Positions 21,422 to 26,086 of a stretch of 32,000 nucleotides of DNA are shown piece after piece (the first letter of the stretch is position 1; each line of letters begins with the position of its first letter). The stretch lies in the NCBI GenBank assembly GCA_021650915.1, contig CP091279.1, positions 1,410,001 to 1,442,000 of the forward strand, written 5' to 3'. The position numbers and the translations under genes are program-made. Below the pieces are notes generated by a model. That model did not search any database. It was not told the DNA's origin and saw only the letters and a list, made by a program, of their open reading frames with translations. This stretch comes from Candidatus Brocadia sp. (GTDB lineage Bacteria > Planctomycetota > Brocadiia > Brocadiales > Brocadiaceae).

Positions 21422-24058
21422 ATGTCTGATAAAATTGAACATGCTATCGAACACACAAGACATTTGTTGCCCGATCAGGGTCCGCTGCCATTCTTTGTTC
21501 ACCACAACACCATTCATCACTTTGAATCTTACGACTTTTTCGAAGGCGTTAAACAGGCAGGGCGTACGTATGGCGCTAAGTCGTTTATGTCCGAAGAGGA
21601 GTTCCTCCTGGCGTTTCAACAAGGACGCATCACGGCGTCTGTTTTGTACAAAGAGATCAAAGAATATATAAGGAATCACCATCTCAATATCCCGCCGGAC
21701 ATTCTCTTTAATCTCATGACGGAGAAACCCCGTGTGCGAAGAGAGCCAGGCGCCAGGATTCTGCAGTTTGTAAATGACACTGCATATCAGCGCCCGGGTT
21801 ATTACAAAGAAGCGATTCAAATCACCCACAATCAGAATATTGATGAACTGATGGAACCGGTTCTCTTTCGTTTTTTCCCCTCGTATTTCGACCTTGGCCT
21901 GGCCTATTGGCTTATGCCGCACCGGGAGAAAGGGTTGTGGTATTGTTTCTGTGAAAGCTACTCAAAGAGCGGTTTCTTCAGGCCGAAATTTCTCAAGACA
22001 CTGAACCGGATCGTCTCCGAGGCAAAACGATATCCCTACGATGAGGCTACCACACTCTTACTGAAACGTCTGGCCATTCCCGATGAACACCTGGACGACT
22101 ACCTGTTCAGCATTCTGTATCGTTACCGGGGGTGGACTGGCACCATTAAATCACTGGAAGAGGTGCCGGACTGGATTCCAAGTCACGATATTAAAGCCTC
22201 ATTGAAAGAGGTTGTCCCGGTGATTCTCGTTGTTGAGCTTGCGGCGATTGAGTCCATATGTGAGCTTATAAGTCTGAAGATTCCCGTCTATAAACCAATG
22301 CCATTATATGATCCCTATTTTATCGCTTCTCTGGTAAACGCCCTGGGCATCAAACATGGCGACACATACCCCAGAGAGGTCACACATTTTACCGGTGAAA
22401 ATCTCCTGGAGATATGGCAGCGCTCCTATGAAGACACCTTTTACGATCAATTTCTTACAACATACCGCAAGGGAGCTATCGAGGAAAAGCCGGAATACAA
22501 GCTTCCGAATTATCAGGTCTTTTGCTGCCTGGATGAACGCGAGGAATCTTTCCGCAGACATTTGGAACGAATAGATTCCGGCGCAGAGACCCTGGGGACG
22601 GCCGGACATTTCAGCCTCGATATGAAATTTAAGGCAGCGCCGGATAAGCACTACCGCAAGATGTGCCCACATCCTTTAGTAACACCGTCGGTACAAGTCT
22701 ACGAAGAAGCGGCGAAGCTTGAGGACTCGATGCCTAAAAAATTGCAGCTTTACGGGGAGGCGCAATGGGCAATTACGCAATCATCCAAGACCCTTTTTGG
22801 GGGCTTTGTCCACACGATTTTCAGCGGAATTCTGGATTTCCCGCCGTTTATCCTGGACGTGCTCTCACCAAAGTATAGCTCAAAGCTGCGACGGTATCTG
22901 GCGGCGCATAAATCCAGGACGCGGTTGGTCTACAAAAAAGAAACCCATGAAAATGAAAAAGGATGGGATCTGCAAGGGCGGATCGCCCGCGCCACGGGCA
23001 TTCTCAAAGGCGCCGGGTTTTCGGACAACTTTTCACCTTATGTATTCACGCTGGGTCATGGTTCGAGTAGTCTCAACAATCCTCATGAAGCCGCCCACGA
23101 TTGTGGGGCGTGCGCCGGAGGGCGCGGCGCACCGAACGCGCGCCTTTTTGCAGCCATTTGCAACGAACCTGAAGTTCGCGCAGGGCTTGCAAAAAATGGC
23201 GTCATCATACCGGATTCGACCCGGTTCATTGGTGGATATCATAACACCTGCAGCGACGAGGTGCTATTTTTCGATCTCCCCAACCCTATCGAGCCGCGTC
23301 TGCAAACGTATCTTGATACGATTCGCCGTGCGGCAGCATTGGATGCGAAAGAGCGCTGCAGGCGCTTTGACGCAGTCAGAACGGATTTATCAGAAAAAGG
23401 ATTCGCCGATTATGCGCAGGGACGCTCGATGGATATTACCCAGCCACGCCCGGAATATGGCCACTGCACCAATGCACTGGCTATTGTGGGCCCACGGCAT
23501 CTGACGCGGAATCTTTTTTTAGACAGGCGCGTATTTTTGACCTCTTATAATTATACGGTAGATCCTGAAGGGAAATTCCTGAGAAACATCCTCGGCGCAG
23601 TTGGCCCCGTATGCGCGGGAATAAACCTTGAGTACTATTTCAGCTTTATTGACAACGAGCACTACGGCTGCGGCACCAAATTGCCTCACAACATTACCTC
23701 ACTGGTAGGGGTAATGAACGGACATTACAGCGACCTTCAGTTGGGATTGCCATGGCAGATGGTCGAACTCCACGAGCCTATCCGGTTGATTCTGCTTGTC
23801 TGCTGCAAGGTCGAAACAATGGAAACCATCCTCGGTGAGGCATTCGGCTATACCGGCCAACCCGGACACTTTCAGTGTCTGGTGAAACACAACTGGATTA
23901 CCCTCGCAATCCACGATCAGGAGCAGGAAAAGCTGTTTTTATGGAAAGAAGGACGTTTTGTGCCATTCGAAGAGACGGCGGATGTACCGAAATACAAGGG
24001 CGACGACCAACGGTTTTTCCTCGAACAGGGTCATCTTTTATTTGGCCAAATTATCTAG
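21422..24058 (+). CDS. dabA: DabA (DUF2309-family, beta-carbonic-anhydrase-like subunit of a DAB inorganic carbon uptake module)
   Basis: 878 aa with GAAGG upstream of the ATG. Candidate Zn-site residues are C369/D371 (FCCLDERE) and H546/C561 ([22 protein letters not shown]). Their internal spacings (2 and 15) are the same as in the characterised DabA as I recall it. Confidence 0.88.
   Translation: [878 protein letters not shown]

Positions 24059-26086: not shown

Follow-up and report, generated by a model that had tools for sequence, protein, structure and literature searches.

The dabAB locus of Candidatus Brocadia

We analyzed a 32,000-nucleotide stretch of a Candidatus Brocadia sp. genome (GenBank assembly GCA_021650915.1, contig CP091279.1, positions 1,410,001 to 1,442,000 of the forward strand), referred to here as the window and numbered from its first letter. 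It carries two adjacent genes, dabA and dabB, that encode a DAB-type inorganic carbon system. Features lie on the forward (+) strand unless marked (−). The first gene, dabA (21422..24058), has an ATG start and encodes 878 amino acids (aa) with matches to the Pfam family PF10070 and to DabA2 of Halothiobacillus neapolitanus (PDB chain 9rd0_A). The second, dabB (24068..26086), has a GTG start and encodes a long-form NuoL/ND5-like membrane subunit of 672 aa that matches PF00361, ND5/NuoL, and chain 9rd0_B. Both open reading frames (ORFs) are present where the initial annotation had placed them.

At the junction (24056..24070), the TAG stop codon of dabA lies within an AGGAG, followed after a 9-nt gap by the GTG of dabB (ATC TAG GAG TAC ACA GTG). 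A TAGGAG-N6/7-GTG, ATG, or TTG junction is kept at 15 of 17 Brocadiales loci, and the arrangement has the form of translational coupling, as had been annotated. No ORF for DabC, the third small membrane subunit that DAB1 requires, lies between or after the two genes. Likewise, Pfam scans of the window ORFs found no nuo or mrp genes near dabAB and, among ORFs of at least 120 aa, none for RuBisCO or carboxysomes, in agreement with the initial annotation. Its description of ORF-free flanks was correct upstream, where 1257 nt (20165-21421) are ORF-poor, but not downstream, where a convergent corA begins only 63 nt from dabB. The proposed anammox (anaerobic ammonium-oxidizing) host is corroborated within the window itself, because hydrazine synthase genes lie at 3450-8308 (−).

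DabA retains the zinc site and departs from known systems around it

The proposed DUF2309/DabA identity was borne out by a hidden Markov model search. Residues 9-825 align with positions 1-746 of the 747 in the PF10070 profile (641 bits against a cut-off of 25; E=3.9e-192). A phmmer search of the PDB matched H. neapolitanus DabA2 (9rd0_A) at E=2e-64. In DabA2, C351, H524, and C539 are the zinc ligands, and D353 and R355 form an Asp-Arg dyad (DAB2 paper). The motif FCCLDERE aligns with DabA2 FCIDVRSE, such that C369 corresponds to C351, D371 to D353, and R373 to R355. The codons C369-L-D371-E-R373 (22526..22540) would thus specify the first zinc ligand and the Asp-Arg dyad. The DabA2 segment GHGSSTTNNPHRAGLDCGACAG aligns with the second zinc-site segment of the window, pairing H546 with H524 and C561 with C539. 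These codons (23057..23104) cover the putative second and third ligands together with the NNPxE..DCGAC coupling motif, in which E556 corresponds to DAB1 E704 and D560 to DAB1 D708. MAFFT alignments of 29 and 68 DabA sequences gave the same zinc-site columns, all of them invariant, and R373, A394, H607, and D612 (window DabA numbering) were invariant or nearly so.

The initial annotation had matched C369/D371 and H546/C561 to the DabA2 site, and this correspondence holds residue for residue. However, calling the zinc site identical overstates the mechanistic similarity, given the departures at the positions of L658, W656, and E444 in DabA and of H260, the Lys of transmembrane helix (TM) 11, and I151 in DabB. 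At the L658 position, the window has His681. The codons Y679-G-H681 (23456..23464) belong to a motif, RPEYGH, that reads RPEWGL in DAB1 and DAB2. In the 68-sequence alignment, all 56 members of the anammox, sister, and short-DabB clades have His here, and all 12 DAB2 sequences have Leu. L658 takes the place of the Gln or His that is canonical in beta-carbonic anhydrases (beta-CAs), at a position equivalent to H397 of the carboxysomal enzyme CsoSCA. It is strictly conserved in 150 DabA2 homologs and broadly in DabA, and Leu at this position in DAB1 and DAB2 has been argued to disfavor bicarbonate binding. Moreover, DabA2 W656, whose replacement by Arg or Cys decouples DAB2, is Tyr679 in the window, and S356 is Glu374. 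The lid motif reads GTAGHFS versus GI(A/G)GFFG in DAB1 and DAB2, and its His396 (Phe in DabA2) is specific to the anammox and sister clades.

A further difference concerns the element that would reach into the membrane subunit. Residues ~439-494 (22736..22903) form a predicted helical hairpin, the likely counterpart of the membrane-inserting finger or elbow, from AlphaFold2 (AF2) modeling and alignments. Its three helices (439-454, 458-481, and 483-494) have predicted local distance difference test scores (pLDDT) of 54-66 in a model built without the partner subunit, and this stretch cannot be aligned with DabA2. The region is longer than in DabA2, the motif FVE[ST]AG is absent, and no acidic residue aligns with the finger residue Glu444, whose substitution (E444A/Q) abolishes DAB2 activity. 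The DabA model as a whole has a pLDDT of 83.5. A Foldseek search with it gave no significant match in a PDB copy to 2026-04-08 that evidently lacked 9rd0, and CsoSCA was not recovered. No N-terminal signal peptide is visible by eye in DabA, which makes a riboplasmic orientation of the catalytic domain probable for either membrane location of DabB.

The restored His681 is the strongest hint in the sequence of an altered coupling ion, gating, or reversibility. It also favors a reading of the complex as a reversible or mainly dehydrating membrane-anchored carbonic anhydrase (CA), which would deliver CO2 from the bicarbonate pool to formate dehydrogenase and CO dehydrogenase/acetyl-CoA synthase, or would dissipate or generate an ion gradient, and would not be a one-way bicarbonate pump. 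With His681, this position would regain the role of hydrogen-bond donor or proton shuttle that it has in canonical beta-CAs and CsoSCA (H397), whereas it is Leu in DAB1 and DAB2. The Trp whose mutation decouples DAB2 is Tyr here. The Wood-Ljungdahl enzymes consume CO2. A CA has, in addition, been proposed to raise intracellular CO2 (PMC3655542). However, all 56 wider-clade members sampled carry both the His and the Tyr. Because heterotrophic Planctomycetes, Acidobacteria, Myxococcota, and Legionella relatives are among them, the two residues are not an anammox adaptation. The mutation L658Q gave DAB2 no uncoupled activity in vitro. In addition, the buried site, lid motif, and DabB partner are all kept under purifying selection, although a free CA would need none of them. 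We consider a reversible enzyme unlikely. Another coupling ion, altered gating, and reversibility are each rated lower because L658Q was not uncoupling and the His is common to many heterotrophs.

DabB has an altered ion path and a long C-terminal module

DabB matches PF00361 weakly (65.6 bits) and falls below the curated NCBIfam cut-offs for both NuoL (94 versus 556 bits) and MrpA (68 versus 937). A profile of the DabB clade searched against the PDB scored 234 bits with ND5/NuoL, 155 with DabB2, and 132-144 with MrpA. We modeled DabB with AF2 from an 80-sequence alignment (pLDDT 83.2; predicted TM-score, pTM, 0.86). The N-terminal ~375 residues superimpose on NuoL with a root mean square deviation of 3-4 A (best match 7p62_L, E=1.9e-11; Foldseek). 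Together with the PF00361 match, this NuoL-like core agrees with the initial description of a NuoL/MrpA-like subunit.

A row of charged and polar residues (E149, E180, D183, K226, Y250, H256, D312, K314, H343, H347, and R351; 24512..25120) marks the putative ion path. We compared these by column counts in alignments of 80 and 31 sequences and by aligning window DabB directly with H. neapolitanus DabB2; the DabB2 and DabA2 sequences were taken from their native locus (L058). Much of the path is shared. K226 and D183, equivalent to the K235/D185 ion pair of DabB2, are invariant or nearly so, as are D312, K314, H343, and H347. However, the His of TM8 (H260 in DabB2, H229 in T. albus), which is essential for proton conduction and whose substitution by Ala abolishes function, is Tyr250 in 80 of 80 sequences, with an invariant His256 six residues on. 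In the TM11 motif His-x3-His-x3-Lys, H343 and H347 are kept, and the Lys is Arg351 (Arg in 77 of 80). Glu144 of NuoL, which is Ile151 in DabB2, is retained as Glu149. At position 180, the equivalent of DabB2 R182, three genera (Brocadia, Kuenenia, and Jettenia) have Glu, whereas Scalindua shares Lys with the sister clade and the remaining sequences have Arg.

Because Tyr250, Arg351, and Glu149 set this path apart from those of the proton-coupled DAB1 and DAB2, we considered coupling to Na+, by Na+/HCO3- symport or by hydration that Na+ drives, along the lines proposed for MpsAB of S. aureus. PF00361 also takes in subunits of Mrp Na+/H+ antiporters, and MpsAB has been argued to use sodium. Yet the clade profile scores far higher with proton-pumping ND5/NuoL than with MrpA, the conserved chain of Lys, His, and Glu residues is typical of proton channels, and no sodium-site motif was identified. 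The same residues, moreover, occur in freshwater and marine anammox genera alike. Sodium coupling is accordingly a reading that we regard as rather improbable.

The initial annotation had noted that DabB is longer than characterized forms owing to extra C-terminal helices, and the model agrees: ~17 TMs are predicted in 672 residues, compared with 559 aa in DabB1 and 551 aa and 15 TMs in DabB2. The predicted order begins with NuoL-like TM1-11, three short cytosolic helices (380-416), and a further TM (425-449). A periplasmic beta-hairpin (454-472) and three TMs (479-557) follow, and then a helix (575-589 and 596-607) broken at PGLG (592-595), with W600-E601 in its second half. The last TM (612-637) and a poorly predicted C-terminal helix complete the protein. 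Residues ~425-672 (25340..26086) thus form a C-terminal module of six further TMs, the beta-hairpin, and the broken helix. Foldseek matched the model to NuoL/ND5 over the N-terminal core only, with no match for this module.

The broken helix (GMPGLGTFLGWEH) aligned weakly by HMMER to ND5 TM12 (GMPFLTGFYSKDH), the helix that carries NuoL K399/D400. In DAB2, the place of K399/D400 is occupied by Glu444 of DabA2. All 27 anammox sequences and 39 of the 43 from the sister clade have the buried Glu601, and we infer that in this lineage DabB itself would supply the acidic residue. If so, the lack of a Glu444 counterpart in DabA would be explained. The module is common only to the ~600-aa forms of the sister clade. 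DabB proteins of other Planctomycetes, Acidobacteria, and Myxococcota are 433-526 aa long and end after the cytosolic helices, without TM12 onward. At these short-DabB loci (L026-L056), the DabA partners are longer (~940-1100 aa).

These features together raise the possibility, which we rate as low, that the type found in anammox bacteria, Legionella, and Planctomycetes is a third mechanistic class of DAB, with the beta-CA His kept, Glu601 of DabB serving the outer half-channel, and an ion path through Tyr250, His256, and Arg351. Were this true, coupling would differ from that of DAB1 and DAB2, and the complex could be reversible, differently gated, or driven by another ion. It could be the sole CA activity in anammox bacteria, at an energized anammoxosome or cytoplasmic membrane, and would form a direct link between the proton-motive force (PMF) and the CO2/HCO3- balance on which both the Wood-Ljungdahl pathway and ladderane synthesis draw.

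dabAB is an ancient and conserved trait of Brocadiales

Scanning one genome per GTDB species, we found dabA at 20 Brocadiales loci in 19 assemblies, with two copies in the Brocadiaceae metagenome-assembled genome (MAG) B4_bin.26. Among the carriers are Brocadia, a Kuenenia, Jettenia ecosi, and three Scalindua, at 77-90% identity. Protein searches added further Brocadia, Jettenia, Kuenenia, and Scalindua MAGs, with orthologs from these genera spanning 76-90%. Eighteen or more Brocadiales species have the pair. At 18 of the Brocadiales loci, dabB directly follows dabA, and across these 18 the conserved synteny consists of the dabA-dabB pair only. Flanks are conserved within subgroups alone, and the genes that neighbor dabAB in the window do not do so at other loci. 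The neighborhood therefore carries no functional signal. Against five relatives, the ratio of nonsynonymous to synonymous substitution rates (dN/dS) was 0.06-0.12 for both genes, and dabAB is thus under strong purifying selection.

In a neighbor-joining tree of DabA (Kimura distances, 862 columns, 200 bootstraps), the anammox sequences form one clade (100% bootstrap), within which the two Scalindua group together (100%). Their nearest non-anammox relatives are DABs of Legionella, Bdellovibrionales, and UBA10199, rather than those of other Planctomycetes. The clade uniting anammox bacteria with Legionellales, Bdellovibrionales, UBA10199, and some Gammaproteobacteria has 100% support, whereas Pirellulales and Isosphaerales fall with Acidobacteria and Myxococcota in a separate clade (92%). 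The sequences thus place dabAB in the common ancestor of Brocadiales, with vertical inheritance since.

The initial annotation had taken the base composition and flanks of dabAB as a hint of horizontal acquisition. The G+C contents that it gave, 48-50% against 38-40% for neighboring genes, are close to our values for dabA (49.6%; third-codon-position G+C, GC3, 55%), dabB (47.4%; GC3, 56%), and the genes to the left (38-42%; 776-19334, hydrazine synthase excepted). They do not describe the right-hand genes (44-49%; corA to 31558) or the hydrazine synthase (hzs) genes, which are a hallmark of the lineage and the GC-richest in the window (53-54%; GC3, 63-66%). At every low-GC Brocadiales locus that we fetched, Scalindua included, dabA and dabB had a GC3 of 0.47-0.59 compared with 0.36-0.39 for their neighbors. 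Because there is no sharp compositional boundary (the right-hand neighbors already reach 44-49%), the hzs genes are richer still, and the GC3 excess is order-wide, the raised G+C is a stable property of dabAB, possibly connected with codon usage, and does not signal a recent acquisition.

We therefore regard it as very improbable that dabAB is a recently acquired genomic island; as a recent event, this is refuted. The contrast with the left-hand genes, the 1.26-kb ORF-poor region upstream, the variation of flanking genes among genomes, and closest non-anammox relatives that lie outside the Planctomycetes would all fit an island. However, every anammox genus sampled has orthologs (77-90% identity), which form one clade with Scalindua separate, the GC3 excess recurs across the order, upstream non-coding blocks are conserved among Brocadiaceae, and no integrase, tRNA, or direct-repeat boundary was noted. 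Any transfer must predate the Brocadiales radiation, given the single anammox clade, purifying selection, and order-wide GC3. An older transfer between the Brocadiales ancestor and a proteobacterial or bdellovibrionotal lineage is plausible.

Several observations concern individual relatives. In Scalindua sp. RBC_AMX3 (L017, 4076-6789), dabA is present as two overlapping ORFs of 406 and 501 aa, which may reflect a frameshift, a sequencing error, or a pseudogene. A predicted 869-aa protein from an ENA contig (P0030) joins PAS, HisKA, and HATPase domains to a partial anammox-type DabA (its C-terminal 60%, at 78% identity). This may be a gene-call or assembly artifact, or a hint that a sensor kinase adjoins dabA in some genomes. 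Downstream of dabAB, loci L003 (14745-21476) and L010 have a block in common that consists of two copies of a ~675-aa gene and three other conserved genes. The ~675-aa product is weakly DabB-like (23% identity) and is probably another NuoL/Mrp-like subunit.

Non-coding DNA upstream of dabA is conserved

The ORF-poor region contains terminator-like hairpins of the upstream methyltransferase gene (20337-20365), and a promoter scan placed a sigma-70-like site at 20693-20720. By blastn against other Brocadiaceae dabA upstream regions, we found two conserved blocks (20662-20804 and 20940-21066, within 20662..21066) and a third at 21322-21414, with 69-90% nucleotide identity across Brocadiaceae (L001, L003, L006, L007, L011, L013, and L015). 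In an alignment of 19 Brocadiales upstream regions, the last ~130 nt before dabA align at all 19 loci and contain the motif TTTGCAATATTTGGTGTGC, marking 21290..21421 as a conserved promoter-proximal or leader region directly 5′ of the gene. The most likely basis of this conservation is a promoter or operator together with a site for ribosome binding. In the window, the conserved blocks are spread apart by insertions, one of which carries the repeat described below.

A riboswitch or structured leader was rejected, since RNAalifold found no consensus pairs in the 19 upstream sequences and the region had no meaningful Rfam match (one at chance level, E=0.74). Likewise, tblastn with the upstream ORFs of other loci detected no pseudogene remnants of upstream neighbors. 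A ~42-45-nt repeat occurs at 21281-21322 in the window, at 4634-4675 in L001, and in reverse orientation at 703-747 in L011. In L001, the closest relative, the copy lies within a 190-nt insertion that separates dabA from dabB. This looks like a small mobile or repeated element.

A probable vectorial carbonic anhydrase in anammox bacteria

DAB2 and DAB1 are PMF-dependent vectorial CAs, and MpsAB substitutes for CA in S. aureus. By analogy and from the sequence features above, the dabAB product is probably a two-subunit vectorial CA of the DAB/DAC/MpsAB superfamily that couples the PMF to CO2 hydration and so supplies bicarbonate. DabA would sit on the riboplasm (cytoplasmic) face, with a buried Cys2-His zinc site and Asp-Arg dyad and its helical hairpin inserted into DabB. 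The flow of a cation, most likely H+, down its gradient through the NuoL-like DabB would cause conformational changes that drive CO2 hydration and the release of bicarbonate into the riboplasm. The sequence analysis establishes family membership, the conserved zinc site and gene junction, conservation across the order, purifying selection, the residue differences, and the predicted topology; which ion is coupled, which way the reaction runs, what the complex does for the cell, and where it sits we infer. The riboplasm lies on the negative side of both the cytoplasmic and the anammoxosome membrane, and for this reason the sequence cannot discriminate between them.

Anammox bacteria fix carbon by the Wood-Ljungdahl route. 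In such cells, dabAB would most likely trap CO2 as HCO3- for bicarbonate-dependent enzymes such as acetyl-CoA carboxylase (fatty acids and ladderanes), pyruvate carboxylase, and carbamoyl-phosphate synthetase, and would buffer the inorganic carbon pool. The biotin carboxylase and carrier protein genes 6.5 kb from dabA fit this role. The absence of nearby RuBisCO genes is not in itself unusual, because DabA homologs were noted in 2018 in the genomes of heterotrophs that lack Rubisco. The S. profunda paper (PMC3655542) counts CA among the genes of that species that were not detected in K. stuttgartiensis, and no CA gene was identified in the new alkaline-tolerant anammox genus represented by Ca. 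L. alkalitolerans, a matter called unresolved in 2026 (PMC13597103). Bicarbonate supply is therefore the best-supported reading: All characterized relatives supply inorganic carbon, and, on current annotations, canonical CA genes were not found in Kuenenia or Ca. L. alkalitolerans.

Three points weigh against bicarbonate supply. First, residues that are essential or strictly conserved in characterized systems are replaced (DabB H260/H229 by Tyr, DabA W656 by Tyr, and L658 by His) or absent (DabA E444). Second, the restored His681 could stabilize bound bicarbonate and permit the reverse reaction. Third, Wood-Ljungdahl enzymes use CO2 and not HCO3-, so it is not obvious what the main route of fixation would gain from a bicarbonate pump.

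A DAB system necessarily affects pH and the PMF because, in the DAB1 model, hydration releases a proton into the riboplasm and DabB admits another. The primary role could thus lie outside carbon supply, for example in pH homeostasis of the cytoplasm or anammoxosome, where CO2/HCO3- would act as a buffer couple tied to the movement of ions. The intracellular pH gradient that anammox bacteria maintain (reference cited in PMC13597103) would suit such a role, as would the presence of corA and other transport genes as neighbors. However, those flanking genes are not conserved across Brocadiales, and all characterized relatives serve inorganic carbon supply. We judge such a primary role to be improbable.

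The initial annotation knew of no characterized DAB in anammox bacteria, and our searches agree: We found nothing relevant that joined DabA or DUF2309 with anammox, Brocadia, or Planctomycetes in the literature searched. The analysis adds two things. dabAB is an order-wide, vertically inherited anammox trait that goes unmentioned in the anammox literature searched, and it represents, on sequence comparison, an uncharacterized DAB lineage, set apart from both structurally solved types by changes at positions whose function has been tested. Anammox bacteria account for a large share of fixed-nitrogen removal in the oceans and in wastewater, and grow slowly on CO2. Their CO2 and bicarbonate handling is poorly described, and an order-wide DabAB is a concrete candidate for the missing CA activity. 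The lineage also occurs in Legionella, many Planctomycetes, Acidobacteria, and Myxococcota, and is in effect a natural experiment. Because the TM8 His, elbow Glu, and active-site Leu and Trp highlighted by the 2026 structures and mutant screens are replaced, characterizing one member would test the proposed coupling models.

Genomic context in the window

The hydrazine synthase cluster (3450-8308, −) encodes beta-propeller, di-heme, and HZS_alpha (PF18582) subunits. In order of transcription, these are a beta-propeller protein (8308-7109; 399 aa), a di-heme protein like cytochrome c peroxidase (CCP) and MauG (7193-5979; 404 aa), and the alpha subunit (5903-3450; 817 aa). If each ORF is taken from its first start, the first two share 85 nt. 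A sigma-54-dependent response regulator (9075-10466, −) lies directly downstream of the ORF upstream of the cluster, and several multiheme cytochrome c genes surround it (776-2146 and 11374-13180, −).

A full dnaA (16601-17947, −; 448 aa) is followed by an AT-rich region (~17950-18890; G+C, 31-34%) and a second ORF (18894-19334, −; 146 aa) that matches the C-terminal helix-turn-helix domain of DnaA only and ends inside that domain. The segment 16601-19334 is possibly a replication origin with a truncated dnaA duplicate. Genes for a biotin carboxylase (451 aa) and a biotin carboxyl carrier protein (154 aa) lie at 13406-15278 (−), 6.5 kb from dabA; both are subunits of acetyl-CoA carboxylase, which consumes bicarbonate. 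In the sister clade, the UBA10199 locus L025 likewise has a homolog of biotin carboxylase (43% identity), ~3.6 kb downstream of its dabB (about 18084). The proximity in both places may be coincidence.

Comparison with known systems

DAB2 of H. neapolitanus (PDB 9rd0, 9rd8, and 9rd9) is, like the window system, encoded by two genes without DabC, with PF10070 and PF00361 products. It also has the same zinc ligands and Asp-Arg dyad, the counterparts A376, H585, and D590 in DabA2, and, in DabB, the K235/D185 pair, the TM11 His-His, and a NuoL-like core. However, identity in DabA is only 26%, and the genes run in the order dabB2-dabA2 after a LysR gene (L058), rather than dabA-dabB. From DabA2 to window DabA, L658 becomes H681, W656 becomes Y679, S356 becomes E374, and the lid Phe becomes H396, and E444 is without a counterpart. 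From DabB2 to window DabB, H260 becomes Y250 (with H256), the TM11 Lys becomes R351, I151 becomes E149, and R182 becomes E180, and a protein of 551 aa and 15 TMs contrasts with one of 672 aa and a predicted ~17 TMs that has its own Glu601.

We compared DAB1 (DabA1-DabC-DabB1 of T. albus and H. neapolitanus) by the motifs quoted in a preprint rather than by direct sequence alignment. Like the window system, it has dabA before dabB, the Glu of NNPxE (E704, equivalent to E556), and D708 (D560), and its elbow hairpin has a predicted counterpart in the window. Where DAB1 has H328 and R331 after TM11, the window has H363 and H366. Unlike the window system, DAB1 includes DabC and has the motifs DW(xxx)RPEWGL, against RPEYGH, and GI(A/G)GFFG, against GTAGHFS, and its TM8 His and TM11 Lys are both replaced in window DabB. 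MpsAB of S. aureus, compared by description, is likewise an adjacent PF00361/PF10070 pair, and it supplies inorganic carbon in an organism without Rubisco or CA. It differs in its gene order (the DabB-like mpsA, then mpsB) and in the sodium/bicarbonate symport proposed for it.

Among more distant proteins, NuoL/ND5 and window DabB have several residues in common (E144, D178, K229, H334, and H338 are kept), as well as a TM12-like broken helix with an acidic residue. However, NuoL H254 is Tyr in the window, the long lateral helix is not predicted, and there is no complex I context. CsoSCA, a carboxysomal beta-CA, resembles window DabA in that its H397 corresponds to the kept His.

The closest likeness is to the sister clade of Legionella, Bdellovibrionales, UBA10199, and some Gammaproteobacteria. 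These have a ~600-aa DabB that is alignable end to end, the same order of dabA then dabB, H681, Y679, and H396 in DabA, and Y250, H256, R351, and E601 in DabB. They differ in identity (38-45% for DabA and 32-43% for DabB), in having Lys at position 180, and in being ~60-70 residues shorter. Judged by these likenesses and differences, the dabAB of the window is neither DAB1 nor DAB2 and belongs to a third, uncharacterized DAB lineage.

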